A DNA stretch of 32,000 bases from Candidatus Saccharimonadota bacterium (GCA_042852035.1 BAAFHK010000003.1:150001-182000); one strand, 5' to 3'; positions 3,980-30,044 are shown, numbered from the stretch's first letter. Translations and numbers: made by a program. The notes: generated by a model not told the origin, from the sequence alone.

Positions 3980-4594
3980 CTATAAAAGTCTTCAGAGAAT
4001 ATTTGTTCGAATATTCTCATAATCTGTTGATATTATCATCAAATGATTCATGATTTCTCACTCAAGTAGCATTTGTTCTGCGGTCTTTGTATCAATTCCA
4101 TGAGATTCAAGGTAAAAAAGTTTTTCCCCTGATATTTCATGCACCTTGCAAGAATGTCATCATTCGATACTATCGGTCCCAACTTCAAGTACAGGTCTCC
4201 CTCGAACTTTTGCACCTTTTCCAAGAAGAATATTCGTCTGATCAACTCTGAGTTTTACTCATTCGCACCCATTTTTTACGATTCATATTCCATCAATCTC
4301 AATGTTTGATCATCATTTCGCCAATCAAAGGAGCTGAAGAGAGGCTTCGGAATTTGATCATTGTATTGAAACGAACATTTTTAGAACCATATTTGCTCAT
4401 AATACAATAGCCCCTCATCGGAATACGGCTCACTCCTCCAGACAAAAATGACGCTCATACACACCCTCAACCTCTGGGACAAATAGATATTTCTGACATT
4501 CGTTTTTCCCGATATTGAAGGATAAACTTGATACATCTCACCTATCGAAAATATGTGGAAGATGATGGACGATTTTTGGGTTATCACATTGCAT
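3980..4594 (-). CDS. sufD: SufD-like Fe-S cluster assembly protein (short form, 204 aa)
   Basis: The C-terminal half reads ...VDQTNILLGKGAKVRGRPVLEVGTDSIEGGHSCKVHEISGEKLFYLESHGIDTKTAEQMLLEGEI. This matches the SufB/SufD beta-helix signature (Q.N.LL...A.....P.LEI..DDV.C.HG......E.LFYL.SRGI....A..ML). A full-length SufB lies elsewhere in the window, so this is the D-type partner. The start at ATG 4594 is uncertain. Confidence 0.6.
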
Positions 4595-4616
4595 ATGGCG
4601 AAGTATAGACAGAGAA

Positions 4617-4666
4617 GGGAAAATGGCAAAAGGAAATCTTTGGGAAAATGGCAAAAGGAAATCTTT
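4617..4666. repeat. perfect 25-bp tandem duplication gggaaaatggcaaaaggaaatcttt x2 (4617-4641, 4642-4666), plus a degenerate third copy to ~4686
   Basis: The repeat was read directly from the sequence. It sits in the 114-bp divergent spacer between the sufD-like start (4594, -) and the ATPase start (4709, +). The unit length is not a multiple of 3. Confidence 0.9.
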
Positions 4667-4693
4667 GGAAAAATAGAAGAAATTTGATATTAT
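4665..4693 (+). promoter_or_regulatory. sigma70-like promoter candidate: TTGGAA (4665-4670), 17-nt spacer, TATTAT (4688-4693)
   Basis: The -35-like hexamer is formed by the 3' end of repeat copy 2, and copy 1 carries the related ttggga. An AAGGA string lies 6 nt before ATG 4709. Confidence 0.3.
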
Positions 4694-4708
4694 ACACAAA
4701 AGGAATAC

Positions 4709-7129
4709 ATGTCCCATAATCATCACTACATTACCTACGAAGTTGCTGTCGATCGAGCCAATGAAAAATGAGTATTTGTCGCTCGCGAAATGCTCTCCAC
4801 TCTTCATCATGCCGTTGAACATATACGTCCATGGTGGAAAATATGGGAAAAGAAAATTCACCCTGTATTTCGTTTTGAAATAGTTTCATCAGGAGGGCAG
4901 ATCCATTTTTATTTCACTGCAGAAAAATCATTTTCTTCATTTCTTACGAGTCAACTCTATGCTCATTATAGTGACATTGAGCTACTTGAAGTAGAAAATA
5001 GAGCATTCCCCCTATGACCATTTCGTACTCGAGAAATACAGATTTCTCACCACTCACTTGAGAGTATTAAGTTTTATGTAAATCTTAAAGATCGAACTGA
5101 AAAAGAATCTGTCGACCCACTTTCTTCACTCACGAGCGCACTTTCAAAAACTCCAAAAGATGAATATGGAGCATATATTATTGATTTTGGACCTGTAGAA
5201 GATCGGATATGGAGATACGAATCTCATCGAATAATATGGGATTCTCACATCATCCCTTCCTTTGCAAAAATGCACCTTCTGCATTTATGGTCATGGATTG
5301 GGTGGATGTTTCTTCCACTAAGTTGGTCACGGAAGATTATAGATTTTCTTTCCCCCGGGGAAGATGATGGTCATAACTCTCATGATGAGCACGATAAACC
5401 CACAAAAGTAGAAACAAAATCTGAGGGTTATGGATACCAAGTGCAAATACGGGTAATCAAAGATCAAAAGAACACTCTTCAAGACGAAGTTCTCCTCAAA
5501 GAGTTTGCGGGTGGGATGAATATTTTTGCCAACCCAAAAGGAAACCATTTCGAAATGAAGCGATCGAAATCAATCGACACTATCCCAACACTGAGAAAGC
5601 TTCCAACAAAATCCATGATTCTCTCATCAACAGAGCTCGCTGGACTTGTTCATATGCCAACACTCTATGTAAAAACTCCTGGAATTCGTTGGGTAACTAC
5701 AAGAAAATTTGAACCCCCTCATAATCTGCCAAGCGTTGAATCTCCAAATACACCTATCGGAATGGCAAATTACCGAGGAAGTTTAGAGTGATTCTGACTT
5801 AAGCCCATTGATCGTGCTCGACATGTCTATATCATAGGAAAAACTGGGATGGGAAAATCAACCCTTCTTGAGAATATGATCTATACGGACATTTTAAATG
5901 GACGTTGAGTAGCCGTTATCGATCCACATGGCGATCTTGTCGAAACGATACTGGCAAATATTCCCAAGTCTCGTACGAATGATATTGTTCTTTTTGATCC
6001 TGCCGACCAAGAATATCCGATTGCATTCAACATGCTTGAAAACTCGAGACCAGAGCTTCGACCCATTGTTGCCTGAGGACTTGTGTCGATATTTAAGAAA
6101 ATGTTTGCTGAAAGTTGGGGACCCCGACTTGAGTATATTTTACGAAACACAATTCTCACTCTTCTTCTGATTCCAGACACAACAATGATATCTATTCCTC
6201 TCATGCTTACCCATGAGGCGTATCGAAGAAAGGTGGTATCGAAGATTGATGATCCGATTCTGGTTCAATTCTGGAATGAAGAGTTCGCTAAGATGAGCCC
6301 GAGCATGCAGAGTGAATCAATTAATCCAATTCTCAACAAGGTGGGCCAATTTCTCTCTTCTCCCATACTTCGAAATATTCTCTGACAACCAAAAAATCCC
6401 TTTTCTCTACGTTGGATAATGGATAACTGAAAGATTTTTTTAGTGAATCTCTCAAAATGAAGAATTGGCGAAGATGCAAGCGCCCTACTTGGTGCAATGA
6501 TGGTAACAAAATTTCAGATAGAGGCAATGACCCGAGCTGATATTCCCGAAGATCAAAGAAGAGATTTTGGACTCTATGTCGACGAATTCCAGAACTTTGC
6601 CACCGACTCATTCGCCACGATTCTCTCAGAAGCGAGAAAATACAAGCTCTCACTTACGATGGCGAACCAATATGTCGAACAAATGGCAGAAACCGTACAG
6701 GGTGCGGTTTTCGGGAATGTTGGATCGCTTATTGCATTTCAGGTTGGGTACCACGATGCTGTTACTTTTGCGGAAGTTTTTGGTGGCGAAGATGTCATAA
6801 CTCCTCAGGATCTTACGAATCTTAAAAAATATGATATTTATACAAAACTTCTTATTGATGGTATGCCCTCACCCGTCTTCTCGGCTACAACGTATGCACC
6901 TCTGAGAGAGCGCATAGAAGTTCCACCCCAACAGACTCGCGACGTACTCCAGAAAGTTTCTCGTGAAAAATATACAAAGAAAAAGGATTTCGTAGAGAAA
7001 AAGATCTTTGAAAATGTAACAAAAATTCGTGAAGAAGAAAAAAAATTCCGTGAAGAACAAGAAGCTTATAAGGAAAAAAAGAAAGAGGAACGAGAGAGGG
7101 AAAAAAAGAAAGAAAAAGAAAGTAATTAA
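4709..7129 (+). CDS. VirD4/TraD/TraG-family (T4SS coupling-protein-like) P-loop NTPase, paralogue 1, with an uncharacterised ~340-aa N-terminal domain and a K/E-rich tail
   Basis: The 806-aa product is rebuilt from 5 same-frame ORF fragments joined by 9 TGA codons. Motifs are Walker A HVYIIGKTGMGKST, VIDPHGDL, Walker B-like FGLYVDEFQNF, and EARKYKLSLTMANQY (TraG-D_C-like). The C-terminal tail is KIREEEKKFREEQEAYKEKKKEEREREKKKEKESN. Without an HMM search I cannot exclude a VirB4/HerA-type assignment. Confidence 0.8.
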
Positions 7130-7218
7130 AGCTACTGCTGATAAGCTAAAATATCTCATGACACTGAATTTTGCTTTTTCTAAAATATAGAGTAAAGTAC
7201 GTTTATTAACCTCAGTAT

Positions 7219-8190
7219 ATGCTACGACTTCTTGCTCTCTTCGGAATACTTCTTCTTCCATTTTCTCTCTTTGCAGCAAATCAAGGAGATCCAAATCTAC
7301 GAAATCCTGCGAATGTTAAAGTTGATGGGAATATTAATGATGATTTGGCAACATTTTGAGCTCTAAACAATATATTTGATTTCTTTATTAGTCCGACATT
7401 CTCGGGTGATGCCGTCGAAAATTCATTTGTAAATATTGCCTGAGCCATAAAAAACTTCTTTATTCTTATAGCGGTTATTTTTCTTATTGTCGGAATCGTA
7501 AAACTCCTCTTTCGTAGTGGTGAGGAAGAAGATATGAAAAAATGGAGGCATAATATTATCTATGTATCTGTAGGTATTTTTGTTATGCAAATAGGCTACT
7601 CTGTATGGAAAACTCTCTATTTGAATACAAACTATTCATGACTTTTTGTAGACGGAAGGGTCGGATGGCTCTTTTGGAATAATATTCTCCTTCCCATCGT
7701 AAATATTATGTTTGTCCTCGCATCACTTGGATTCCTTGCGATGGCAGTATACGCCTTTTATATGCTTGTAACTGCGAATGGAAATGATGAAAAAGCAAAA
7801 AAATGAAAGAATGTTGTTCTTTATGCTATAGTTTGATTTCTTCTTATCCGAGTACCTATACTTTTTGTCCCCGCTATATACGGTGAACCTGACAATAATT
7901 GTAAAAATGTTGGATGGATGAACGTTTGAACTTGTGCTCTCACAAGCAAAAATCTTCCAGATGGAGTTAATATTTTTGGGAAGATCCTTACGTATGTTTC
8001 TACTTTTCTCGCACTTATAGCCGTTGTACTCGTGATATATGCTGGTTGGCTTATATTTAGCTCTGGAGGAGATGAAGAAAAACTCAAAAAGGCTAAATCA
8101 GTCCTTCTCTATGTTGTTATTGGTTTTGTTGCCCTTATTGCAAGTCACGTAGTATTTCGATTTTTCTTCCTTGGAACAGCAGGAGCATAG
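7219..8190 (+). CDS. membrane protein built from three tandem T4SS-pilin (VirB2/TrbC-like) helical-hairpin modules, with an N-terminal signal peptide
   Basis: 323 aa with signal-like MLRLLALFGILLLPFSLFAANQ. The unit 'hydrophobic helix - S/T/N-G-x-D/E-E-K..KK - hydrophobic helix' occurs three times: ...IFLIVGIVKLLFRSGEEEDMKKWRHNIIYVSVGIF, ...AVYAFYMLVTANGNDEKAKKGKNVVLYAIVGFLLI and ...VLVIYAGWLIFSSGGDEEKLKKAKSVLLYVVIGFVAL. The third copy is closest to the CPR T4SS_pilin pattern. Confidence 0.6.
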
Positions 8191-8235
8191 GCGCTTTTCT
8201 TTGCTTTTTTTCAACCCTTTCGATATAATAATCAC

Positions 8236-10665
8236 ATGACTCAAGAGGAGCTCATCGTCGTTATTTCGATTGCACTCATCGTAATAATTCTCTTCTATAT
8301 CTCCACTCGTCGTCGCATTGCATTTCGACGGTCTCTGGAGATGACTTTTTTGCGTGTTATTATAGCAAGAAAAGATAGCGATCAAGATGAAAAAAAGGAG
8401 ACCGTTAAAGACTTTCGGGAACAGATATCTATCATGGAACAGCTCCTTGCGAGTTTGAAATCCCTCTATTCAAGTACAGCAATAGGTTGGCTTTTTGGGC
8501 AGGAATATATTTCCCTTGAGTATGTGGCTCATGAGCAAGAAATCTATTTCTATATTGTTGTACCAAAGCACTCAAAACTTCTTGTTGAAAAACAGGTTCT
8601 TGGGTTTTATCCCGATGCTCTTATCGAAGAAACGAACGAAATAAACATTTTCGAAGGAAAAAAGGTTGTCAGGGGGGAAATCATGAAACTCAAAAAGCCG
8701 TATGAATACCCTATTAGAACCTACCAAAAACTTGAATCAGATCCGATGAATGGGATTCTTTCAGCGTTTTCAAAACTCAGAGAAGATGAATCGAGCGTTA
8801 TACAGATACTTTTACGTCCGGTTGATGATGATTGGCAGGAAAGAATTAAAAAACATATTCGGAAAACGGAAAAGAAGCATACTGGGATACATCTTTCCTG
8901 GAACCCCCTTCATTGGATTGGATTAATCTTTGATCTTTTCACTCGAAATGATAAAGAAGATCTTCATAGCACTGAAGAAAAAGATGGAGAAGATCCAATA
9001 GACGAGGATGGTCTGATGAAAGAGAAGGTAAAAAAGACTGGATATACCGTATCTATTCGGATTCTCACCACAGGAAATGATGACGATGCTGTTTATGCTG
9101 AACTACAAAATATTATTTCGGCATTTTCTCAGTTTACTTCCCCCGCATATAATAAATTCAAGCCTGTAAAACGAAAATCCCTTTCAATTCTTATTCGACA
9201 TTATATTTTCAGGCAATTTGCTTGGTGGCAAAGAAACAGCATTATGAACAGCGAAGAACTCGCTACCTTGTTTCATTTTCCACATAATAAATACAACAAA
9301 CAACCAGAGATTCGTTGGCAGCGTTTCAAGCTCATAAAGGCACCGACAAATATTCCCAAAGAGGGGCTCTATATCGGAGAAAATAATTTCCGAGGCGAAA
9401 GAAAGCCAATTTATGTGAAAAATGAAGATCGATTTCGTCATTTTTACGTTATTGGGCAAACAGGTACGGGAAAATCATCCATACTCTCAGTAATGGCAAG
9501 GCAAGACGTACGATCTGGAAAATGACTCGCCATGCTTGATCCTCATGGTGACCTTGCGAGAGAACTCATCGGATATATCCCAAAAGATAGAGCAGATGAT
9601 GTGGTCTACTTTGACCCTGGCGATCTTGCTCGTCCAATGGGACTCAATATGCTTGAAGCAGCAAATGAAGACGAGAAACAAATGGTAGTAGCTGATGCTA
9701 CTAATATCATGATAAAGCTTTTTGGAAATGAGATTTTTGGACCTCGTATCCAAGACTATTTCCGAAATGGGTGCCTCACTCTTATGGACTACCCTCAATG
9801 AGGTGCTATTACTGATCTCGTACGACTTTTTACTGATGAAAACTTCCAAAGAGAACGCCGAACAACTCTAAAAAATGCCGTTGTGCGAGCATGGTGGGAC
9901 TATACTTATGCAAAAATGGGGGAACGAGAAAAGTGAGAGATTATCCCATACTTCGCAGCAAAATTTGGTCAGTTCATCACGAATACAATGATGCGCAACA
10001 TCGTTGGACAAACAAAAAGTGCCTTCGATGTAAGTGAGATTATGAATCATGAGAAGCTCCTTCTTGTATCGCTTTCAAAGGGTATTATCGGTGATCTCAA
10101 CTCAAATCTTCTTGGCCTTATACTCGTTTCAAAGATTCAAATAGCAGCCATGCGTCGACAAAACATGGCAAAAGAAGATCGTAAAGATTTCTTTCTTTAT
10201 ATCGATGAATTCCAAAACTACATTACTGATTCGATTGAGTCTATCCTTTCTGAGGCACGTAAGTATCGACTTTGACTCGTTATTGCGCACCAATATCTAT
10301 GACAATTAGAAAAATCTGATGCTCTTACGAAATCGAGCCTCAACCTTAAGGGGGCAATATTTGGTAACGTTGGAACGGTTATGAGTTATAAACTTGGACC
10401 TGAGGATGCTGAATTTATGGCAAAACAATTTGCTCCCGTCTATTCTGAACAGGATTTTGTAAATATGGATAAATTTAAGGCGGCTATTAAACTTTCAGTC
10501 GATAGCCAACCAACACCAGGATTCTCTATAGCTCCTCCAAACCCATTTCTTGAGGTTCCAGATACAAAAACAGGTGCCGCCCTGAAAGAACTTTCCCGAC
10601 TTAAGTATGGCCGAGAAAGAGAGTTTGTTGAAAAAGAAATCATTTATCGTGTCGGAGCTAACTAA
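8236..10665 (+). CDS. VirD4/TraD/TraG-family P-loop NTPase, paralogue 2, with an N-terminal TM helix and the same uncharacterised N-domain
   Basis: The 809-aa product is rebuilt from 4 same-frame fragments joined by 5 TGA codons. The N-terminal TM is LIVVISIALIVIILFYI. Motifs are Walker A HFYVIGQTGTGKSS, MLDPHGDL, FFLYIDEFQNY and EARKYRLG(TGA)LVIAHQY. It is collinear with paralogue 1 over the whole length, including ELA.L.H.P and W.W/HWIG motifs in the N-domain. Confidence 0.8.
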
Positions 10666-10672
10666 TTCGCTT

Positions 10673-11650
10673 ATGAAGTATACACTCCCCCTCATCGCGA
10701 TAGTCACAGTTATTCTAGGTCAGATAGCCTATGCCGATGATCCAAAATTCGACTGTGATGTGAGAACCTACTCTTGTTATGAAAAGCATGTAGAGAACAT
10801 TTGTAATGCGAGAGATGAACCCTTTAAAAGTCAGTGGTGATCTTGACCCGATCTTTGAGCCCTAAAATCAATTGCCTCTTGTAAATATCCAGAACTTGAT
10901 AAAGATAAGATCAATAACACTATACGCTGTATTGAAACGCTTGAGCAGTCTGATTCAACTGCTCTCCAAGATGGCGTAAGCATGAGCTCCATGGGGGCAT
11001 CGAATTGATTTCGAATTGCCGAACTTTCAAGACTTATGTACCGGAGAAACATGAATAGCATATTCGCCTGTTGAGTGATTGCGAGTCGTTATTCGAAGCT
11101 CGATTCTCTCAATACAATTCTTATTGGAAAGCAATGATCTTCTGAGATTCAAGAAAGCATCAATAAAGAACGGAAGCGATATGAAACCTTAAAAAACCAG
11201 ATGAGTTGTGATCAAAATAGGCCTGCCAATAGCTCAACAGGGGTAGTAGAACGACTCATGAAAAGTAGCATGAAAGAATATTGTAAATACACTTACTACC
11301 TTGATTATGTTGATGCAAATTTAAGAGAGAACTTTGATGCTATCTCAAAACTTGATACAAAAATAGGAGATAATAATAGCTCAAAATCAGCATCAACAAC
11401 AAATGATGCTCAGAAGGAAATCATTTCACGTGGAAGGTTTGTGGAGGACGAAAGAAAGCGAGCCAACGAAGTACTCCCAAAAGCCATAGTTGCATTTCAA
11501 GAAATGGATCGAACATATGTTATTCATATAATGCTCACATTCCTCTATGATGACTACCTAAAACTTCGAGATCAACTCAATATTTATCTCACAACGATAG
11601 GGCAAACATTTGAAAAAGCATTTAATGCACAAGACGATAATCAAAGATAA
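10673..11650 (+). CDS. secreted Cys-containing hypothetical protein (signal peptide, 8 Cys)
   Basis: ATG 10673 lies 8 nt after the ATPase-2 stop, in the same frame as ORFs 10607.. and 11201.., joined by TGA codons. The N-terminus is MKYTLPLIAIVTVILGQIAYADDP, followed by FDCDVRTYSCYEKHVENIC. 325 aa. No family recognised. Confidence 0.6.
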
Positions 11651-11653
11651 CAA

Positions 11654-11685
11654 TAAAAAAACTCGCCATATGGCGAGTTTTTTTA
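11654..11685. terminator. bidirectional rho-independent terminator
   Basis: Perfect palindrome actcgccatatggcgagt (11661-11678) flanked by an A-run on the left and a T-run on the right. It lies between the convergent stops at 11650 (+) and 11686 (-). Confidence 0.8.
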
Positions 11686-11904
11686 TTATTTATTGAGAGT
11701 TTCAGTCTTTTTCTGACGAGCATAGAACTTGTCGACAGAACTTGTTTTAAGAAGAGTTTTCTTTCCAGTATAGAATGGATGACACTTAGAGCAGGTTTCT
11801 ACACGAATTTCTTCGTCCTTAATACTACTCATTGTCTCGAACTTATTTCCACAAGAACAAACAACTTGTACTTTTTTAAACTGTGGGTGAATATTTTTTT
11901 TCAT
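11686..11904 (-). CDS. rpmE: 50S ribosomal protein L31
   Basis: The product [27 protein letters not shown]...[11 protein letters not shown] is the classic L31 sequence with the CxxC...CxxC zinc ribbon. It contains no TGA. Confidence 0.9.
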
Positions 11905-12046
11905 AAGAAAAATGGTTAGGAGTATTACAATCGCTTGATACGAGTGTTCCTAGTATTTTTTATGGTGAAATACAAAACCGTTTGAGCGAAGAACTCAAAA
12001 TTAAGGACTCATTTTCGGAATTCTTAATTTTTAATTCTCCAGTGAG

Positions 12047-12131
12047 TGGTGCCCAGGAAGAGACTTGAACTCTTACACCGTAAGGCAACGGCTTCTAAGA
12101 CCGTCGTGTCTACCAATTCCACCACCTGGGC
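12047..12131 (-). tRNA. tRNA-Leu (anticodon UAG), class II with long variable arm, CCA encoded
   Basis: The reverse complement folds as acceptor GCCCAGG/CCTGGGC, anticodon stem ACGGT/GCCGT with loop CTTAGAA, and T arm AAGAG-TTCAAGT-CTCTT, ending in ACCA. Confidence 0.9.
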
Positions 12132-12143
12132 AGACATTTTGTA

Positions 12144-12228
12144 TGGTGGGCCGGGAGGGATTCGAACCCCCGAAGGCGAAGCCAAAGGATTTACAGTCCT
12201 CCCCATTTGACCACTCTGGTACCGACCC
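12144..12228 (-). tRNA. tRNA-Tyr (anticodon GUA), long variable arm, CCA encoded
   Basis: The reverse complement is GGGTCGG...GAGGA-CTGTAAA-TCCTT...GGGGGTTCGAATCCCTC-CCGGCCC-ACCA. The acceptor contains one G-U pair. Confidence 0.9.
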
Positions 12229-12239
12229 ATATACAAAAA

Positions 12240-12315
12240 TGGAGCCACTTATCAGACTTGAACTGATGACCGTCGGTTTACAAAACCGATGCTCTACCAA
12301 CTGAGCTAAAGTGGC
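12240..12315 (-). tRNA. tRNA-Thr (anticodon UGU), CCA encoded
   Basis: The reverse complement is GCCACTT TA GCTC AGTTGGTA GAGC A TCGGT TTTGTAA ACCGA CGGTC ATCAG TTCAAGT CTGAT AAGTGGC T CCA. Confidence 0.9.
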
Positions 12316-12376
12316 ACGTGGGGCTGATTGTATAAAAAACGGTTGTCTTGTCAAAATATTTTTATACACTCATTGT

Positions 12377-12832
12377 ATGATAACGATACTTGCTGTTACA
12401 GATGGCTTTAAGCATTTTGGTGAGGCGATTTCCGAATACGGAAAGCGTATACAAAAAGTGGTCACTCTGAAACCCATAAAACCAATCTCTCACACAAACC
12501 CGGAGTACATAAAAATTAAAGAGACTCTTGCCATTATTGAAGTTCTAAAAAAACAAAAAGGTAAGGTCATTCTTCTGGACGAGCGAGGAAAAAGCAAAAC
12601 AACACGCGAATTTATGGAAACTCTAGAAGATGCAAAGAATTCGAGCGATGATATTATATTTATTATTGGTGGAAGTTACTGAATCGATTTGGAGATATTT
12701 CGAGATATTCCCCATGAAACCTTAAAGCTCTCTGATTTTGTTATGCCCCATTCCCTCGCGCTTCTTGTCCTTCTGGAACAAATTTATCGAGCGCATGAAA
12801 TAATGAAGGGGAGTGGATACCACCACAGTTAA
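12377..12832 (+). CDS. rlmH: 23S rRNA (pseudouridine1915-N3)-methyltransferase RlmH (SPOUT)
   Basis: The 151-aa product reads MITILAVTDG...ILLDERGK...IIFIIGGSYG(TGA)I...LSDFVMPHSLALLVLLEQIYRAHEIMKGSGYHHS, which matches the RlmH C-terminal knot motifs. Confidence 0.85.
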
Positions 12833-15092: not shown

Positions 15093-16508
15093 TTAGAGTC
15101 ACTCCATTTCCATTCCGATAAGTATATTCATCTCTGCAGCATATTCGAGAGGAAGCTCTTTCATTAAAGGGGAAACGAATCATCTGACGATAAGTGTTTT
15201 TGCTTCATCTTCTGGTATACCATGAGAAAGAAGATAAAAAAGAACATCTTCATTTATCTTTCCAACGCTCGCTTCATGGGCCACAAGTGCATCATCTGAA
15301 GCAACACGAATATCAGGGATTGTGTCAGAGCGAGAATTTTTATCGAGGATAAGACCATCACAGTCAATCTTTGCGACAGCACCGGTTGCTGATTTTTTTA
15401 TATCGAGGAGTCACCGATATACTGAAATTCCCCCATTTTTCGAAAGGCTCTTTGAAATAACCTCACTCGAGGTATGTTTGCCAATATGGATAACTTTTGC
15501 TCCCGTATCAGTATTTTGTCAGGAATTTGCAAATGCAATACCATAATGTAAGGCCCGAGATCTGTCTCATTTGAGAACCGAGCATGGATAAAGCATAGTA
15601 ACTCAAGAACCAAGATTTCCACCAACCCACTCGATGGATCCTCCTTCTTCTACAAGGGCACGTTTTGTATTGAGGTTATAGGTATCTATTGACCAATTTT
15701 CGACACTCGAGTATCGCATTCTTGCGTTCTTCCCCACATATATCTCTACGCAGCCCGCATGAAGACTTGCTGTACCGTATTTCGGAGCACTACAACCCTC
15801 GATATAATGAGCTTCAGCATCATCTTCAACAATAATTAAAGTATGCTCAAATTGCCCACCTGCTTTTACGTTCATTCGAAAGTACGCTTGAAGTGGATCA
15901 GTGATTTTCACGCCCTTAGGGATATAGAGAAATGTTCCCCCACTCCATACCGCTCCATGGAGGGCCGCGAACATGTGATCACTATTTGGCACCACTCTCA
16001 TAAAGTGCGATCGTACCAATTCTTCATGTTCGATTATTGCTACTGACATATCTTCAAATATGACTCCAAGATTTTTGAGCTCCTCTCTGAGATTGTGGTA
16101 TACGACTTCACTGTCATACTGAGCACCGACTCAAGCAAGCATGGCACGTTCAGCCTCAGGGATTCAGAGTCGGTCAAAGGTAGATTTAATCTTTTCAGGA
16201 ACTTCATCCCATGATTTTGAATCTCATGCACCCTCAGGCTTGGCAAAGTAGTAAATAGATTCTAGATCAAGGAGATCTAATGAAGGTCACCAAGTTGGCT
16301 TTTTAAAAGAGCGATATAGTTCAAGTGACTTGAGTCTCTGCTGAAGCATCCAGTCAGGCTCCTTATTCGAAATGGATATCTGACGTACGACTTCTTCATC
16401 AAGTCACATCTTGGCTATCTGCGAATATACGATTGTATCACTCGAATCCAGCGTTTTTCTTGATATATCGCCAAAGGCTTGAATGTCATCTTGTGGGTTT
16501 TGAGGCAT
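15093..16508 (-). CDS. sufB: Fe-S cluster assembly protein SufB
   Basis: 471 aa. The product reads MPQNPQDD...YYFAKPEGAG...HGAVWSGGTFLYIPKGVKI...QFEHTLIIVEDDAEAHYIEGCSAPKY...GKHTSSEVISKSLSKNGG...ALVAHEASVGKINEDVLFYLLSHGIPEDEA...LIGMEMEGL. I checked codon by codon from 15093 to 15605 and found no in-frame TAA/TAG. Confidence 0.9.
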
Positions 16509-16520
16509 TTCTAATGAAGT

Positions 16521-17255
16521 TTAAAAACCATTCTTCCGAATATCATCTATTAGGGCTTGTTCGCCATGTCGATGAATTTGTCAAGAACTCATAATTACTA
16601 CTTCATCGACATTAATAGTGTCGAGTAAATGAAAATTATGAGAAATAATGATAACAACTTTTGACATACTTCGCCATTTTTGTATTTGCTTTGAGAGGAT
16701 TTCAAGCGCTCCGATATCGAGACCCGAATCGATTTCATCAAGGAGGATAAGTTTCGGATCAAGGAGGGCGATCTGAAGCATCTCTATTCTGCGTTTTTCT
16801 CAACCAGAGAAACCAACATAAAGATCTCTATCAAGAAATTTTGAATCGATTCCATATTCTGGAAGAAGCTTCTCCACCATTCTTCGAAAGACAAATGGAG
16901 TTGGAGCCTTTTCACCTGGATGACTCTTCTCAAATGAATGATTATATATGGTGCGAAGGTACTCTATAAGGCGGATACCTGGTATTTCTGGTACGTTTTG
17001 GAATGAGAGAAACATACCCCTTTCTGAGAGAATATTTGGCGTGAGATTACTCAGAGATTCACCGAGAAAGAGCGCTTCTCCTTCTATTGAATAACGTGGG
17101 TGATGAAACAGTGCAAAAGCAAGTGATGACTTTCCACTTCCATTTTTTCCGAGAAGAGCATAGATTTTGCCTCATGAAAATGAAAATGTAAAATCATTGA
17201 CTATGGTTTTTTCCTCTACCGTAACAGATATGTGAGAAAGTTGAAGCATGCGCAT
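16521..17255 (-). CDS. sufC: Fe-S cluster assembly ATPase SufC
   Basis: Motifs are Walker A LLGKNGSGKSSL, ABC signature FSGG(TGA)EKRR, Walker B LILLDEIDSGLD and H-loop IISHN. 244 aa, with the stop 12 nt before the sufB start. The start could instead be the second ATG at 17249. Confidence 0.9.
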
Positions 17256-17388: not shown

Positions 17389-20277
17389 TTATTGAGCAGA
17401 AGCTGTATAATCTTCAGTAGTACCAGTATTGTAAGTAATCTGGAGAACTTCACCAAGAAGATTAGTAGGATCTACGAAGTCTGAATCAACAAGGATCTCA
17501 TAAGAGTAAGTACCACCATTCTTAGAAAGAGTAGGGTAGCTTGCAAGAGTGAGGTTTGTTGCAGCACCAGGAACAGCACCAGTACTTGTAGAAGTAGAAG
17601 CTTCTGGACAAGTAGAAACGCTAGAACCTTCAGCGCGGAGACAGTAAATAGCCTTATATGAAGAGTTGTTATCTGCAACTGGTTTTACACGAGCCTTAAT
17701 AGCTTCGAGTTGAACAGTTGAATCAGAGTCAACGTTAGTTACCTTAACGAGGAAGACCTTAGCAGACTTCTTAGTAAGAGTAACAGTTGGAGGAACAACA
17801 CCAGTAACATAGTTAGTAGTATTTACTGAAGCAAGAGTAGTAGGAGCTCCTGAAGCAGAACCACCAGAAGACTTGTCTACAGTGTCAAGAGTAACACGAA
17901 GATCAACTGCCTTGTTGTGTTCAGCAGAAGAGAATGAAGTAGTAGTAGCAACTACCTTAAGGTTACGAGTTGTATCCTTAGTAACTTCAGCACTCATATT
18001 GTCGAAGACAATAGAACCTGTAGTAGTAACAGTAACTGTAGCAGAAACTTGAGAGTTAGTAGCAACATCAACGAGTTTTACATTGTTACCAGAAACGATT
18101 GTTGTCCAATCGCTTACACCACCACTTCCAGGAAGGACAGCGTTAGTAACAGTAAGCTTACGAAGAGTAAGGTTCTCAGCTTGAGCTTCTACTGCAAAGC
18201 GTCCGATTTCGAGATCAGCACTAGAGTAGATGCGGCGAGTTGAAGGAGGAGCAACAGTAGCATCCTTAAGGATTACTGTACCACTCTTCACAGTTACCTT
18301 ATCACCAGCTTGTGACTTAGTAACGCTAGAAGTAGCACCGTTAGAAACGTTTCGAAGTTCAGAAATAGAGAATGTAGTAGTATAGTCTACTGGAGTGTAA
18401 GCGTTAGACTTAAGATTTCCAACAACACGAACTGTTACAGGAACACCTGGCTCAACGCGGAATCGGTCTGCAGTAGCAGTCCAGTTCTTTGTAGAAGTAG
18501 TAGCTCCGGCTGTAGAGTTAGAAAGTTCGTAGTCTACACCATTGATGTAAACAGTAACCTTGTTATCAGAGAATGAAGAAAGTCCGCTTGCACTTGAGTG
18601 TGAAGCAACGATTTGAAGAGTATAGTTAGATACGTCGAATGTAGCATCAGAAGTGATAGTCGCCTTGTAGAGTTCTACGGCGCTTGCACCTGGAGCAACA
18701 GTAGCTGTACCAGTAGAAGTCTTCGTAATAGTAAGATCAACAGCATTAAGATCAAGATCTTTTTGAGTAGTACTTGAGTAACCAGATACCATCATAGCAT
18801 AACCTGTAGTCTTTTCAGTTGCTGAAACATCAAAAGATGAATCTACCTTAAATGAAGTCTTCGCTGGAGCACCAACGTAGATAATGTCAGCGCGGAGCTC
18901 AACAGAAGCTTGTTCTCCAGAGAGACGAGCAATGTTAAGACCAGTAACAGTAAGCTTATCAGTAGAAAGAGTAACTGTACCTACCTTAGCACCGTTGAAG
19001 TATGCTGAAACATTAGCAAACACCTTAGTGTAATCTTCACTACCAGTACCCTTAGTAAGAGTAAATGAGTTAATAACTGCATCTTTACCAGATGGAGTAA
19101 GCTTAACTGTATTGAAGAGTTGGTTAGACTTACCTGAAGTAACAGAAGCAGGAGTTCCACCAAATGAATCTACATTAACTGTACCAACTGTATAAGAAGT
19201 AGTGTTAAGAAGACCAAGAGTAACTGGAGCACCGGCAACAGTAGCACCATTAAGAGCAGTAACAGAAGTTACAGCAAATTGGTGTTGGTTGTTCTCAGCA
19301 CCAGAAAGGCTAACGAGAACATCTACAGAAGCAGAAGTACCAGCCTTCAGAACGAGGTTGTTAGTGAACTTAAGTGTAGCTGACTGAGATGAAGTACTCA
19401 TAGAGCGAGCATCAGAGAGAGCAACACCGTTCTGAGTAAGTTGAACTGATGAAATATCAGCAGCATTACCAAGACCAGAACGAGAAACAACGAGTGAAGA
19501 AACAGTTACATCAGCAGCACCAGCAGTAAGCTTAACAGATCCAACCTTAACGCTAGAAGCGTTCTTTGGAACGTATTGAGCCATAGCTGTACCGTCGAGA
19601 GCAACAGTAACAGATCCACCTGTAGAAGTAGTACCAGATGATGATGTACCTGTACCAGTACCACCATCAGTAGGTTCGTCTACAACAACATCGAGACCAG
19701 CACAGATAACTGCAACCTTAAATGCTTCACCACGAGATGATGATGCATTTGGGCGGAAGTAAGATGCATCAGAGATACATCCAATCTCGTTAGCGCGGTT
19801 AACGTATGATGCAAGATCACCAAGACCAGTAAGGTCCATGTAACCAGCGTCAACATCAGAACCGACTTCACCGAGAGCACCGAGGATCATTTTGACCATC
19901 TCAGCACGAGTTACATTCGCATTTGGGCGGAATGTAGCAGAAGAAGTAGATACAACTCCAGCGTCAGCAAGAGCTTCAACGTATCCACAGAGATCACCAA
20001 GACCAGAACCAACGTCTGAATATGTCGTACCAGAACAAGCAACAGGGTCGATACCACCGAGGTTCGCGACGACCTTTGCGATCTCAGCACGAGTGACGTT
20101 ATCACCGAGACGGTAACCAGCCTCACTAGACTGAGCTGTAATTACACCGTTGTCGGCGAGCGTTTCAGCGTAAGGGAGGAACTCAGAAGCAGCAGCAACA
20201 AGTGATGCACTTGTAGAAACCGCTACGAGAGTAGCTGCCCCCATAACTGAAGTGAGCTTCGTAAAGAAGTTACTCAT
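17389..20277 (-). CDS. SLH-domain cell-surface (S-layer-type) protein, 962 aa
   Basis: The signal peptide is MSNFFTKLTSVMGAATLVAVSTSASLVAAA. Three SLH-like repeats follow (...YRLGDNVTRAEIAKVV..., ...FRPNANVTRAEMVKMIL..., ...FRPNASSSRGEAFKVAV...). Next comes a G/T/S linker, then ~700 aa of T/S/V/A-rich beta-type sequence. The ORF is uninterrupted even under the standard code. Confidence 0.8.
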   Translation of the reverse strand: MSNFFTKLTSVMGAATLVAVSTSASLVAAASEFLPYAETLADNGVITAQSSEAGYRLGDNVTRAEIAKVVANLGGIDPVACSGTTYSDVGSGLGDLCGYVEALADAGVVSTSSATFRPNANVTRAEMVKMILGALGEVGSDVDAGYMDLTGLGDLASYVNRANEIGCISDASYFRPNASSSRGEAFKVAVICAGLDVVVDEPTDGGTGTGTSSSGTTSTGGSVTVALDGTAMAQYVPKNASSVKVGSVKLTAGAADVTVSSLVVSRSGLGNAADISSVQLTQNGVALSDARSMSTSSQSATLKFTNNLVLKAGTSASVDVLVSLSGAENNQHQFAVTSVTALNGATVAGAPVTLGLLNTTSYTVGTVNVDSFGGTPASVTSGKSNQLFNTVKLTPSGKDAVINSFTLTKGTGSEDYTKVFANVSAYFNGAKVGTVTLSTDKLTVTGLNIARLSGEQASVELRADIIYVGAPAKTSFKVDSSFDVSATEKTTGYAMMVSGYSSTTQKDLDLNAVDLTITKTSTGTATVAPGASAVELYKATITSDATFDVSNYTLQIVASHSSASGLSSFSDNKVTVYINGVDYELSNSTAGATTSTKNWTATADRFRVEPGVPVTVRVVGNLKSNAYTPVDYTTTFSISELRNVSNGATSSVTKSQAGDKVTVKSGTVILKDATVAPPSTRRIYSSADLEIGRFAVEAQAENLTLRKLTVTNAVLPGSGGVSDWTTIVSGNNVKLVDVATNSQVSATVTVTTTGSIVFDNMSAEVTKDTTRNLKVVATTTSFSSAEHNKAVDLRVTLDTVDKSSGGSASGAPTTLASVNTTNYVTGVVPPTVTLTKKSAKVFLVKVTNVDSDSTVQLEAIKARVKPVADNNSSYKAIYCLRAEGSSVSTCPEASTSTSTGAVPGAATNLTLASYPTLSKNGGTYSYEILVDSDFVDPTNLLGEVLQITYNTGTTEDYTASAQ

Positions 20278-22435: not shown

Positions 22436-23257
22436 ATGTTTCCCACGATAAACATATTCTCGATACAAATATATACCTTTGGCTTTATCATTGCCATAAC
22501 ATGGCTTCTTTTTATATGGCTCCTTCATAGATTTTCACAAAAAAAGTGAATTATTCGGCCAGTTTTTGGAGATATCGCTACTTTTACTATTTCTCTGTTA
22601 TTCTTTGGTCGAATCTTTCACATACTTGCTGATTGGGTAAATGAAAAGTTTATATTTTGATACCTATTTCAGGGAGATTTTATCGAATTTTTTCGACAGT
22701 TTTTTACCCCTCCAGACTATCTTTTTTCACTGTTCGGTGGAATATTTGGGTTTATGCTCGTCTTTTACATCAAAACCCGTCACCAAATTGAAACCCGCCC
22801 GAAGTATCTCGAATCGATTGTTTATGCATTTCTTTGAGCGAGTATACTTTGATACTTTTGAACCCTTTTATGAGGCCAAATATACGGGATTCCTTTTGAT
22901 TCGTTTATATCAATCTCATACACACATCCTGATTCAATTGTGAAAGATAGTGTTCCCCTGTTTCCTTTGCCACTCTTTTACATATTTTTTATTATAGTCA
23001 TTCTATTCGGTCTGCGTCATATATCGAAGAGGCACCATCTCCCTGATGGATTTATTGGATATGTTTGAGTCGGTTTCTTTTCCCTTATTGTTTTTTTCTG
23101 AGAATTCCTTAGCGGAACAAGGGATGATATATTTTACGACTTAGTTATTCGCCTTACACACTGATACTTTTGACTCAGTCTGAACCAAATAGGGTCGCTT
23201 ATAGGTATAACTTTAAGCATGCTATGAATTCTGAGAATTACAGAAAAGGATTTATAA
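22436..23257 (+). CDS. lgt: prolipoprotein diacylglyceryl transferase-like membrane protein
   Basis: The 273-aa polytopic protein is collinear with Lgt blocks: GRIFHILADW, FSLFGGIFGFMLVFYIKTR, LGASILGYFGTLLGGQIYG and PDGFIGYVGVGFFSLIVFFGEFL. The track ORF 22641..22943 lies in a different, non-coding frame. Confidence 0.7.
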
Positions 23258-24780
23258 AGAATCCTAGAAAAATATTCTTATCAGGAGTGGTTCTTTTTAT
23301 GGCTTGAGATATACTATGAATTCTCCATGAGAGCTTTATTTTGTGGGGACTCATTGTAGTATGAGTCATCTTGATATTCTTCTGGGAATGAAAAAGGGGA
23401 TTCATTATATCCCTTTTTTTAGTGGCAATCTTGGCTATTTGATATTTTCTTTGAGGTGCTTCATATGAAAACAGATACAAGGATTACAGGGGGATTTTCG
23501 ATAAGACAAACGGATTTACGTATCAATGATCCATAGAAGGTACAATTATAAAAATCCTTTACAGAAAGGAAAGATCTGTGATATACTTACTAAACTTCGA
23601 CAACTTCGACAACTTCGACAACTTCGACAAAAATTATAAAAGGCCTTTTCCAGAGGGAAAAATGAGTATAAACGTATGATGACGATGAGATACGATATTT
23701 ATCGAAGTCCCTTCGAATTTATCAATATACCCATGAGATAGAATAGTATTTCATTGAAGAATCCAAGCGCTTCTAACATTCCCTCTCGTTGGATATCACA
23801 AGTATGCCTTCTTCCACGGATGATATGGATATGCTTTTGTGCCTCAATTTGAGGTTATTAAAAAAGCTCAACCATCGGTATTTACAAGATTTCAAAATAA
23901 GTGGGAACATCTCTTTAAAAAGTCATTTCCCAGAGAGGTTTCCGGAATTGCCCTTGGTATGACCATAGGATCAACGAAACACCTTACAGAAGAGGTAAAA
24001 GATAGTTTTCTCCTCAGTGGGATTACTCACATTCTTGTAGTGAGCTGATCAAATATAGCCTTTCTCATACTCGTCATAACTGTATTAACAAGATACCTTT
24101 ATTTTCCAAATTGGTTGAACTCAACAGTAATAGTATCTTGCATAGTATTGTATGTCTGTATTGTTGGTTGAGAAATTCCCGTTCTTCGAGCAACAATGAT
24201 GGGAATTCTTTGATACCTTATTGCAAGTTCATGATTAAAAACATCTGGAAGAGCCCTTTTCTGATTGGTTCTACTGATATTAACGGTTATTGAACCACTT
24301 TCACCACTCTATGATGCCGGATATTGACTCTCTTTTGGAGCAACCCTAGGAATAATTGTATTTCAGGGGCAGGCGAAAAACTTTCTTAAAAAATATCACA
24401 TTCCCGAAAGTATTACGGTTGGTATTTCTCTCACTATTGGTGCAACACTCGGTTCAATTCCTATACTTCTCTACCACTTTTGAACCCTTCCTGTATACAG
24501 TCTTATTACCAATATCATTATTTCTTGACTGCTTTGATGGATTCTTTTATCAAGTACGATTTTTTGAAGTATTGCACTCATATGATTCCCCTATTTAAAA
24601 TACCTTTGAATTTTAGTATATATTCCAATAAAGATTATTATTTATATCGCCTGAATTTTTAGCACCTGACCAATACTCACTTTGCAATGAGAATATGCAC
24701 ATATAGCATCTCTTTTTATTCTTTGAGCTATAGTATATTATTTCTTATTTGAGGAAGAATGAAGCTTATATTCAGAATAG
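23224..24780 (+). CDS. comEC: DNA internalisation channel ComEC/Rec2, short form (N-terminal TM + OB-like DUF4131-type region + Competence domain, no metallo-beta-lactamase domain)
   Basis: 518 aa. The product reads MNSENYRKGFIKNPRKIFLSGVVLFMAG..., ...IYPGDRIVFHGRIQAL...YHKYAFFHGGYGYAF... and ...ALGMTIGSTKHLTEEVKDSFLLSGITHILVVSG(TGA)SNIAFL..., which is the Competence-domain core, followed by multiple TM helices. It overlaps the lgt 3' end by 34 nt. Confidence 0.8.
23593..23628 (+). repeat. perfect 9-bp tandem repeat aacttcgac x4, in frame inside comEC (encodes NFD x4)
   Basis: The repeat was read directly from the sequence. It lies in frame 1 of comEC between LYRKERSVIYLL and KNYKRPFPEG. Confidence 0.9.
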
Positions 24781-28682: not shown

Positions 28683-30044
28683 ATGCAATTTAAAGCGGTT
28701 TGTTCAAAGTGAAATCAAAAACTTACCCTTTCACTTTCAGCCTCAAATATTGATGAAGCTCGTTCATTGCTCCATGGACAGGGCTATTCTATAATGGAAA
28801 TTCAGGAAGTAAGTTGAGATGTTCGATCAAATATTAACAATGGTTCAAATTTCTTTTATTTTGATGCTTATATTAATGGTCAGTTAAAGTCCTGAAAAAT
28901 ACAATCACTCGATGTTTTTAAGGCATATAAAAAATTAGTTGATGATCTTGGGTATGATATTTTGTATATCTATACTACAGAATGAATGAATGAGGAACAA
29001 AAGAAGATTATTACAGCAAAAGTAAAAGATGGGTATATCATGTATAAGAAGAGCATGGGGATTAATGTTCAGTCATCGAGTAAGGTAATAAATGAAAAAG
29101 AAGAGCAAATGGCTGAAATTTCCCCCCAAGTTTTACGTGAACTTGAGCACTATAATAACATTATAGATTCAACCATTGAAAAGCTCCAAAACCTTATTCT
29201 TAAATACCATAAAACCATAACTCCTGAAAAAAAGAAGGAGTTCGAAAATATTGAAAATATACTCGTACAATCAAAAGGATCATCGAACCTTTGAAGGATA
29301 AAAATCGTTGTCGAAAATGCTCTTACAACTCTTGGAAGAGTTGAGGCTGATCTTATAAAGTCAGGAGTAGATTCTGAAAAAGGAAAACTTCTTCAAGAAA
29401 CGAATTCTCTCCTTAAGCAAATTGGTTCAAGTGAGCGTATTGAAAGTGGTGCAATAACCGGTAAGGATCTTGTGAAAAATATCACAAACTTTTTAAATTG
29501 ACTTACCAAAAAAGAGGAATCAAAAGTTCAAGAAAAAAAGAAAGTAGATACAAACTCATTTATTTTTTATAAAAATCTCAGAGAACTTAATATTTATAAA
29601 AAAAATCTTAATAAAGTTGTTATTGATATTATCAAGGCTACACTTAGTTTTGATTTTGATCGAGTAAAGCGTTTAAAGTTAAAAAAACGACTTCTTGAGC
29701 AAGACATTCAAATTATTGATAACCGCATACATAATAGAAATATTTCTTATACGAAAATCATAAAATGAACTAAGTACTATACGGATGGCTTTTTAAATAT
29801 TTTACAAAGAATTTGAGATATTCTCCTTTATTGACTTTTTCTTTATACATTCGTTTTTATTGCAATCCAATCACTTGATAGAATTTGAATAGTTTCGTTT
29901 GAGCTTCAGGAAAGGTTTTTTCTCTATATTACAATTATTTCTCTCCTTGCATTTTTTTCTTCATTTTTTCGATCTCTTACTTCCCTTTTTGTTCTTTGAT
30001 CTATTTTTCTGGTTTGTTTTGTATTTTTTTCAGTGAATTTTTAA
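28683..30044 (+). CDS. hypothetical protein: two N-terminal alpha/beta modules, a long coiled coil, and three C-terminal TM helices
   Basis: 453 aa in one frame through several TGA codons. The modules FKAVCSKGNQKLTLSLSASNIDEARSLLHGQGYSIMEIQEV and FFYFDAYINGQLKSGKIQSLDVFKAYKKLVDDLGYDILYIYT resemble the extreme N-terminus of GspF/PilC-type proteins. The TM topology does not match that family. Confidence 0.5.

Follow-up and report, generated by a model that had tools for sequence, protein, structure and literature searches.

A chromosomal block of two coupling-protein-like ATPases, a fused pilin and an exported protein in a code-25 bacterium of the Patescibacteria

Results

Layout and genetic code of the locus

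We analyzed a stretch of 32,000 nucleotides (assembly GCA_042852035.1, contig BAAFHK010000003.1, positions 150001-182000, Candidatus Saccharimonadota bacterium; hereafter, the window), in which an initial annotation had marked a block of four co-directional genes related to type IV secretion systems (T4SSs). The genes, here called A to D, code for two ATPases (A and C), a pilin-like membrane protein encoded between them (B), and a protein with an export signal (D). Read with the standard bacterial code (table 11), the region is a mosaic of short open reading frames (ORFs) only. When TGA was treated as a sense codon, long ORFs in the window added up to more than three times their previous length, 67 kb instead of 19 kb (overlapping frames counted), and four consecutive long ORFs appeared on the plus strand; treating TAG or TAA as sense gave no comparable gain. 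Where A and C have TGA codons, the alignment columns show invariant glycine in homologues from code-11 bacteria belonging to the candidate phyla radiation (CPR; Patescibacteria). Glycine is present in all 19 such homologues at the position of C residue 430, and likewise in 19 out of 19 at the positions of A residues 452, 611, and 636, where tryptophan never occurs. We therefore conclude that TGA codes for glycine, i.e., that genetic code 25 is used. This code is consistent with the Gracilibacteria/Absconditabacteria, and the organism is a code-25 CPR bacterium, in line with the CPR-type origin suggested earlier.

Once TGA is read as glycine, the four tightly spaced plus-strand genes and the gaps between them (89 nt between A and B, 45 nt between B and C, and 7 nt between C and D) are exactly as first annotated. 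The block consists of the following features:

4595-4708 (114 nt): divergent spacer between a SufD-like gene (minus strand) and gene A, placed by alignment of gene starts
4709-7129, plus strand: gene A, soluble paralogue of the DUF8128 plus coupling-protein-like ATPases, 806 aa from the orthologue-supported start
7130-7218, plus strand: A-B spacer, 89 nt
7219-8190, plus strand: gene B, 323 aa, triple VirB2/T4SS_pilin membrane protein
8236-10665, plus strand: gene C, 809 aa, ATPase paralogue with a predicted membrane anchor
10673-11650, plus strand: gene D, 325 aa, predicted exported protein with 8 Cys
11649-11690, bidirectional: terminator-like hairpin with stem CTCGCCATATGGCGAG, extended by A/T runs, which closes the block

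Three positions (4553, 4595, and 4709) are candidate starts of gene A, and use of the ATG at 4595 would give a protein of 844 aa. Close orthologues begin at MSHNHHYITYEV, which corresponds to ATG 4709 here (804 aa in the gene call of the related locus L087), and an AAGGA motif is located 4-9 nt 5' of this codon. Gene A probably starts at 4709, and not at 4594/4595, where its start had been placed. Since alignment to an orthologue puts the start of the divergent SufD-like gene at 4594, the divergent spacer extends from 4595 to 4708. Both borders proposed for the block were recovered, the divergent spacer to the left and, to the right, the bidirectional terminator. The hairpin at the right border has a 16-19 bp stem between an A-run and a T-run, and obtains a terminator score on both strands; no terminator-like site was found 3' of gene A. 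Promoter-like hexamers are present in the divergent spacer on the plus (4665-4693) and minus (4629-4602) strands, and in the A-B spacer (7158-7186, ATGACA-17-TAAAAT, 10/12). These are consensus matches only, and the number of promoter-like sites in the region equals the shuffle expectation, i.e., is not above chance. A 25-bp tandem repeat (GGGAAAATGGCAAAAGGAAATCTTT; 4617-4674, 2.3 copies, 96% match) overlaps the promoter-like hexamers of both strands in the divergent spacer; it may act as an operator or have arisen by recent duplication. The GC content of the block (0.34-0.42) is the same as that of its flanks.

Domain structure and fold of the two ATPases

The products of genes A and C are paralogues, with 33% identity over approximately 770 residues, N-terminal halves included. 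Both paralogues have invariant Walker A (GKTGMGKST in A, GQTGTGKSS in C), Walker B (LYVDEFQN in A, LYIDEFQN in C), and SEARKY motifs. Protein A ends in a K/E-rich tail and has no N-terminal transmembrane (TM) helix. In protein C, a single N-terminal TM helix (aa 6-24) is followed by RRR, and the helices at the C-terminus are conserved. A hydrophobic helix is clear at the N-terminus in 73 of 83 C-type genes scored; the A-type proteins of Gracilibacteria are without it, and one Berkelbacteria A-type has one. The predicted topology places the bulk of C in the cytoplasm, tethered by the single TM helix, while A is predicted to be soluble.

In Pfam searches, A passed the cutoffs of TrwB_AAD_bind (31.8 bits, cutoff 20.5), TraG-D_C (24.0 bits, cutoff 22), and T4SS-DNA_transf (21.4 bits, cutoff 20.1), and C passed those of T4SS-DNA_transf (36.4 bits) and TrwB_AAD_bind (20.6 bits), the margins being small; TraG-D_C was not passed by C (16.7 versus 22 bits). 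Both proteins passed DUF87, which represents a generic P-loop region (28-36.5 versus 23.2 bits). In a profile search of the PDB, TrwB was the top match of the ATPase. Models of housekeeping translocases were not reached: FtsK_SpoIIIE scored 14.1 bits (cutoff 24), HerA_C 14.1 bits (cutoff 22), and helicase_HerA 13-20 bits (cutoff 970). A housekeeping translocase of the FtsK/HerA kind is therefore judged unlikely, and these profile searches, together with the fold matches described below, support the VirD4/TraD/TraG-like lineage of type IV coupling proteins (T4CPs) to which the ATPases had been assigned.

The N-terminal ~350 residues had no match in the local Pfam copy, and are tagged PF26449 (DUF8128) on all database homologues; the name DUF8128 was found in no paper of the literature searched. 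In C, the domain occupies aa ~35-362 and precedes a P-loop motor into which an all-alpha segment (aa ~478-604) is inserted. An AlphaFold2 model of the full-length protein, made from a homologue 96% identical to C (P0001; mean predicted local distance difference test score, pLDDT, 74.9), was compared with the PDB using Foldseek. The best matches were full-length TrwK/VirB4 chains of the R388 T4SS, which aligned collinearly over 820-920 columns (E ~8e-13). They were followed by Cag-beta, TrwB, and DotL (8dol, 1e9s, 1gki, 6sz9), which matched the C-terminal ~400 residues (E ~1e-8, target TM-score, TMt, 0.5-0.56). In the model, helices 478-604 are inserted between the core strands/Walker motifs, and form the all-alpha insert. 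To separate the two fold signals, residues 31-375 of C were modeled alone (pLDDT 79.3, predicted TM-score, pTM, 0.78). All 14 significant PDB fold matches of the isolated domain were TrwK/VirB4 (E 3.5e-7 to 2.4e-5, probability 1.0, query TM-score, TMq, 0.40-0.44 over ~400 columns), and the next match (E 3e-3) was to an unrelated protein. We therefore conclude that DUF8128 has a fold like that of the VirB4 N-terminal domain. The motor half of A and C is T4CP (VirD4/TrwB)-like, with an all-alpha insert between the Walker motifs. The canonical T4CP N-terminal membrane domain, with two TM helices ahead of the nucleotide-binding domain, was seen in neither A nor C. The VirB4-like N-terminal domain of both ATPases had been missed in the initial annotation, and weakens its statement that no VirB4-like protein is encoded here.

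DUF8128-like N-terminal domains also occur in jumbo Bacillus phages, in gp156 of phage G (JN638751, 91012-91785) and in ORF201 of phage 0305phi8-36 (24% identity, E 1e-7 and 4e-4).

The fused pilin and the exported protein

According to its hydropathy profile, the product of gene B begins with a signal peptide (aa 1-19), followed by three hairpins of the VirB2/T4SS_pilin type, with TM pairs at ~80-98/110-130, 156-185/199-217, and 262-280/295-313. The loops of the hairpins are short and charged (RSGEEEDMKKWRH, ANGNDEKAKKGKN, and SSGGDEEKLKKAKS). Three stretches of the protein match PF18895 (T4SS_pilin; 65 bits versus a cutoff of 26.6, E 6.5e-18), and three match NF045849, a family of pilin-like proteins from mycoplasma integrated conjugative elements (ICEs; 57.7 bits versus a cutoff of 40). 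The triple pilin described earlier between the two ATPases is thus borne out. Identity between any two units is no more than 20-25%, roughly the divergence reported for the individual genes of pilin arrays in Patescibacteria (PMC12102498); that paper was not found to mention fused pilins. Three diverged VirB2-like hairpins are fused in protein B, which is predicted to be exported by Sec and amounts to a pilin array on one polypeptide.

Protein D has an N-terminal signal-like hydrophobic segment and 8 Cys, as first annotated; 5-6 of the latter are conserved in the alignment, and the C-terminal ~60 aa are strongly conserved. Searches of Pfam and NCBIfam gave no match, and a PDB sequence search with a profile of D gave nothing meaningful. 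Among 5.8 billion clustered proteins, 27 homologues were found, none of them with a Pfam domain. The identity of D is 70-76% where that of C is 93-96%, and ca. 45% where that of C is ca. 80%, i.e., D evolves much faster. These features point to a fast-evolving protein with a surface or accessory role that is exported by Sec and rich in disulfides. A pilin gene followed by genes for an ATPase and an exported protein recalls the order virB2-virB4-virB5, the likeness of D to VirB5 being one of gene order and export signal only. Several public records of D homologues (among P0241-P0260) contain tryptophan where the window and other homologues have glycine, and were evidently translated with code 4 instead of 25.

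Conservation of the block among relatives

The complete order, from the SufD-like gene (minus strand) through A, pilin, C, and D, is retained in close relatives only (L087, L089, and L088, with C 93%, 86%, and 84% identical, respectively). At 67-80% identity of C (L001, L002/3, L007), pilin, C, and D are kept together and A is located elsewhere. In GCA_031539225 (C 75%), pilin and C are adjacent without D beside C, and the same contig carries A ~45 kb and a VirB4-like gene ~35 kb from this pair, the VirB4-like gene being ~8 kb from the A orthologue. In L008, C and D are kept. The adjacency of pilin and C is observed in L001-3, L007, L087-89, and L092 while the identity of C drops from 96% to 67%; A-type orthologues are otherwise solitary, in varied contexts. 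In oral relatives, PrgI/VirB3 and a TraC-like gene are located 5-7 kb upstream of the pilin-C-D trio.

A jackhmmer search with B and D against the ORFs of 86 loci, which recovered B in seven loci and D in six, leads us to reject a B-C-D module common to all CPR bacteria. The synteny is nested, and retention of B-C(-D) is limited to a subclade of Gracilibacteria. Two ideas of the initial annotation are not supported as a result. Outside the circle of close relatives, the four genes do not stay together as one block, since A is elsewhere when C is 80% identical or less, and D is missing beside C in one relative. The absence of VirB4 from the window had been taken as absence from the system, while relatives have VirB4-like, PrgI/VirB3, and TraC-like genes.

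In CPR bacteria other than Gracilibacteria, C-type and A-type genes were found as tandem pairs, directly adjacent in L036 (1128-3587 and 3587-6163) and 3 kb apart in L038 (6100-8484 and 11621-14410). Their proximity suggests that the pair may work together.

In many Parcubacteria-type lineages, a conserved family of soluble proteins of ~100-210 aa is encoded directly 5' of the C-type ATPase, with gene ends often overlapping or abutting (L041, L043, L048, L049, L052, L053, L061, L064, L069, L074, L076, L083-L085). The same family is present in L044 and L056, though it was not called as an immediate neighbor there. It is a possible lineage-specific partner of the C-type ATPase. Neither these small upstream proteins nor the small TM proteins encoded beside C-type genes in other classes belong to a Pfam family. 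Several large membrane neighbors of C-type genes resemble unrelated transporters (by eye only).

Distribution and age of the ATPase family

When one genome from each GTDB species was scanned with a profile, at least 599 matches to the ATPase family were confirmed. The best 80 of these are full-length, 36-50% identical, and all closer in score to C than to A. They come from more than 12 CPR lineages, including Gracilibacteria, Peregrinibacteria/Peribacteria, Berkelbacteria, Saccharibacteria, Woesebacteria, Curtissbacteria, Daviesbacteria, Levybacteria, Uhrbacteria, Magasanikbacteria, Falkowbacteria, Doudnabacteria, and Paceibacterota. In a neighbor-joining tree, the C clade takes in all those classes, and the A clade comprises Gracilibacteria together with second copies from one Berkelbacteria locus and another CPR locus. 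Because A and C are thus found in separate multi-class clades, the duplication predates the divergence of the classes. The A-type and C-type ATPases are, on the evidence of this tree, ancient paralogues across Patescibacteria, and the duplication is not special to this locus, as had been supposed. The age and spread of the family agree with published counts, by which 2,918 of 3,035 Patescibacteria genomes carry 5,713 VirD4-type T4CP homologues, ca. two per genome (PMC12102498, Quinonero-Coronel et al. 2025). Only 148 of these homologues are near virB4, and exaptation has been raised by the authors. Since both copy number and domain content match, A and C appear to belong to the homologues counted there.

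Outside the phylum, Bacillus subtilis plasmid NRS6116_2 (L090, 8911-11652) encodes a 913-aa homologue (22% identity to P0001 over 765 aa, E 7e-33). Its gene is directly upstream of a gene for a 'replication-relaxation family protein', and clusters with TcpC, TcpD, TcpE, and an 854-aa AAA_10 VirB4-like ATPase. On a Haladaptatus plasmid (L091, 7737-11402), the DUF8128-type homologue comes after a VirB4-like ATPase gene, and ATPases of this type are also found on haloarchaeal Natrinema plasmids. As plasmid homologues lie beside either VirB4 or a relaxase-like gene, the family is found together with VirB4 in mobile elements of monoderms and archaea, where it holds the place expected of the coupling protein. 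In PLSDB, all matching plasmids, 30 in number, are typed as non-mobilizable by MOB-suite; it may be that current typing misses this class of coupling proteins.

Genes flanking the block

Each larger ORF of the window was scanned against Pfam. The gene order is Era, IspH, SufD-like, the four-gene block, three tRNAs, RlmH, RsmE, SufB, SufC, an S-layer homology (SLH) domain S-layer protein, RNase Y, Lgt, ComEC, serine hydroxymethyltransferase, an S41 protease, an M17 peptidase, and a few proteins without a family. Domains of VirB4, VirB6, VirB8, VirB11, relaxase, or lytic transglycosylase were not detected in the main ORFs of the 32 kb, and phmmer searches of the window with the PrgI, TraC-like, and VirB4-like proteins of relatives gave no match, in agreement with the earlier statement that no other T4SS part lies nearby. 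The ComEC gene downstream (23224-24780) contains Competence and DUF4131 domains and no metallo-beta-lactamase domain, i.e., it is of the short form, as annotated. Two features adjoin the block:

3980-4594, minus strand: SufD-like gene, ~204 aa, C-terminal SUFBD_core part only
12047-12315, minus strand: tRNA-Leu(tag), tRNA-Tyr(gta), and tRNA-Thr(tgt), flanked by the terminator and rlmH, ~400 nt past the block

The SufD-like gene is encoded apart from sufB/sufC (15093-17255), and the same short gene adjoins the A orthologue in L004 and L087-L089. A plus-strand ORF obtained with TGA as sense (12035-12832) is partly an artefact of read-through of the tRNA genes. The SLH-domain protein (17389-20277, minus strand, 962 aa, Ser/Thr-rich) is likely an S-layer or surface protein, and its position is conserved in relatives L087, L088, and L092. 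The GC content is low between 28000 and 31300 (0.25-0.29 versus ca. 0.38 elsewhere), where two proteins without a known family are encoded, one of 453 aa with C-terminal TM segments (28683-30044) and the other a 400-aa polytopic membrane protein (30048-31250).

Discussion

Our preferred explanation, to which we give a probability of roughly 0.55, is that the block is a chromosomal island of a dispersed, Patescibacteria-type T4SS that comes from monoderm mating-pair-formation FATA (MPF-FATA) systems, in a code-25 bacterium of the Gracilibacteria group. The initial annotation had proposed a distinct minimal machine. The parts of the block named in that proposal were confirmed, but self-sufficiency is not supported as stated: a dispersed T4SS is more parsimonious, because the block breaks up beyond close relatives and because relatives hold VirB4-like, PrgI/VirB3, and TraC-like genes. 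In this reading, a coupling-type ATPase with a VirB4-like N-terminal domain would be expressed together with a fused pilin and an accessory protein that is exported. The structure and code of the genes, their assignment to families and folds, the predicted topology, and the nesting of the synteny are shown by the analysis. As to complex formation, substrate, direction of transport, and dependence on VirB4, we infer the following. A ring of C, possibly paired with A, would use ATP at the inner face of the membrane, the pairing being modeled on the VirB4 dimers in the R388 machine or on the CedB/CedD proposal. The ATPases would feed a substrate (DNA or protein) to a conduit or pilus based on B, or would help to assemble B, and D would act outside the cell. 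This machinery probably cooperates with VirB4, VirB3, and TrsD genes elsewhere in the genome.

Several observations weigh against a dispersed T4SS. In the 32 kb, no gene for VirB4, VirB3, VirB6, or VirB8 is visible, and the idea that such proteins cooperate with the block is an extrapolation from its relatives. In most CPR classes, the neighbors of C-type genes are unrelated small proteins and housekeeping genes, and not a pilin; from Peregrinibacteria onward through the remaining classes, the neighborhood of C differs, and often includes a small soluble family without a Pfam match. In S. epibionticum, the T4CP homologue is reported to be non-essential while the T4SS is essential (PMC12102498), which argues for some functional independence. 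Finally, the NCBIfam equivalog models for T4CP, VirB4, and Ced were all far below cutoff. Among the TraD/VirD4 models, SXT_TraD scored 45.5 bits (cutoff 366) and conju_CD1115 32 bits (cutoff 250), and the CedD equivalog scored 23.6-30.9 bits (cutoff 600). The VirB4 sequence models AAA_10 (15 bits, cutoff 27.5) and VirB4_plasma (19.4 bits, cutoff 590) matched in the Walker A region only; there was no match to CagE_TrbE_VirB in A or C, and VirB4_CagE, P-loop_TraG, and TIGR00929 likewise stayed below cutoff.

The closest known systems are the patescibacterial T4SS and T4CP homologues (PMC12102498; PMC10633639, Wang et al. 2023), which share with the block the phylum, PF18895 VirB2-like pilins, and the lack of a relaxase; in S. 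epibionticum, the pilin array and the T4SS are essential (PMC10633639). The two papers center on the virB4 cluster, and describe neither a VirB4-like N-terminal domain (DUF8128) in the T4CP homologues, nor two ancient paralogue classes among these, an operon of T4CP and pilin, or D. The pilins described there are arrays of separate genes, whereas here three units are found in one ORF. A paper on Gracilibacteria metaproteogenomics has no specific data on genes of the block. Like the T4CPs (VirD4/TrwB/TraD/Cag-beta/DotL), A and C have a P-loop motor with Walker A and B motifs and an all-alpha insert, and pass TrwB_AAD_bind and T4SS-DNA_transf. Canonical T4CPs have a two-helix membrane domain directly before the motor, while A and C have a VirB4-like domain of ~330 aa instead; C has one TM helix and A none, and the NCBIfam TraD/VirD4 scores are 10-fold under cutoff. 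The ~800-aa two-domain layout, the fold of the N-terminal domain, and the adjoining pilin gene, as in virB operons, are shared with VirB4/TrwK (R388; 7o43, 8rtd). Unlike VirB4/TrwK, A and C do not reach VirB4 sequence models and are nearer to T4CPs in motor sequence, and relatives keep a separate VirB4-like gene. The ATPases of NRS6116_2 and of the haloarchaeal (Haladaptatus, Natrinema) plasmids are homologous over the full length, both N-terminal domain and motor, but have a conjugative setting (relaxase-like or VirB4, Tcp-type genes) with no pilin fusion annotated; the CPR copies, in contrast, are located on chromosomes, are duplicated, and lack a relaxase. Each unit of B matches the model of the mycoplasma ICE pilin-like proteins (NF045849, Mbov_0395/MMCAP2_0565 family), which are, however, single units of ~80 aa near VirB4, while B is a 323-aa triple fusion beside a T4CP-like ATPase.

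The block could also be a self-sufficient minimal machine similar to the Ced system of Sulfolobales (CedA1/A2, CedA/E, CedB/CedD), with A and C replacing both VirB4 and the coupling protein, and B and D forming an autonomous pilus or DNA conduit, maybe for import of DNA. We consider this unlikely, though it is the strongest of the competing explanations. Ced, too, is a system of monoderms with VirB2-like pilins and two paralogous ATPases with VirB4-N-like parts, which dispenses with VirB3/VirB8 through TM anchors and has no relaxase (PMC11868833). CedB and CedD, both similar to the VirB4 N-terminal domain, co-occur, are required for DNA import, and have TM helices in about half of the cases (PMC11868833). 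The VirB4 fold of the N-terminal domain of A and C, the TM anchor of C, by which VirB3 would not be needed, the weak NCBIfam CedD matches, and the operon-like arrangement of B-C(-D), with gaps of 45 and 7 nt, can all be read this way. So can the finding that T4CP homologues are present in more CPR genomes (2,918) than VirB4 (2,417) and rarely near virB4 (PMC12102498), as can the reported dispensability of the homologue in S. epibionticum, where the T4SS is essential (PMC12102498). Yet Ced replaces VirB4, CedB/CedD and VirB4 being complementary in Crenarchaea, whereas in relatives of this organism a separate VirB4-like ATPase is encoded, as are PrgI and a TraC-like protein, and plasmid members of the family co-exist with VirB4 in the coupling-protein slot. 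The block contains no VirB6/CedA-like channel protein, and its pilin linkage is confined to one subclade of Gracilibacteria. The motors are T4CP-like and not of the HerA clade as in CedB/CedD, and sequence likeness to Ced is seen in the Walker A region only, the CedD model reaching 31 bits against a cutoff of 600. An equally doubtful variant holds that the DUF8128 ATPases are a third, hybrid VirB4/T4CP branch which, together with B and D, would form an autonomous, VirB4-independent, Ced-like pilus or DNA-conduit machine, by which ultra-small Gracilibacteria would take up macromolecules or exchange them with hosts.

A little less probable again is exaptation of the ATPases for a T4SS-independent housekeeping role, e.g., translocation of DNA or protein at the membrane, in which case adjacency to a pilin gene would have little functional meaning. 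Full-length identity of 36-50% across CPR classes is very high for a T4SS part, most loci have housekeeping neighbors, the A-type gene is solitary in varied contexts, and no relaxase is present in the window; exaptation was, moreover, raised by the authors of PMC12102498 themselves. Against this, B and C remain adjacent with short gaps down to 67% identity of C despite rearranged flanks, plasmid homologues are located in conjugation clusters, FtsK_SpoIIIE and HerA_C/HerA cutoffs are not reached, and the VirB4-like fold of the N-terminal domain matched only T4SS motors in the PDB search. A decaying remnant of a recently acquired ICE is highly improbable: T4CP-like and pilin genes are typical ICE cargo, the best named family of B is the mycoplasma ICE pilin-like protein, and a tRNA cluster lies 400 nt downstream of the block, but the GC content equals that of the flanks, the block lies among conserved housekeeping genes whose order is shared with relatives, neither an integrase or relaxase nor repeats are found at its borders, the inheritance of both ATPases across the phylum is vertical, and the four ORFs are intact, with TGA coding for glycine as in the host.

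The T4SS of Patescibacteria, its T4CP homologues, and its VirB2-like pilins are known already. To judge from the searchable literature, what is new is the fold assigned to DUF8128, the split into two ancient paralogue classes, the pilin with three fused units, and the operon that includes D. Patescibacteria depend on other cells; the T4SS with its pilin array is essential in the only species open to genetics, and coupling-protein homologues are near-universal in the phylum. The VirB4-type N-terminal domain, the ancient pair of an anchored and a soluble ATPase, and, in one clade, the operonic association of the anchored copy with a fused pilin provide a testable handle on how these bacteria may build or energize a surface conduit. 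The DUF8128 ATPases, with the functional roles that we infer for them, may represent an intermediate form in the evolution of VirB4 and coupling proteins.

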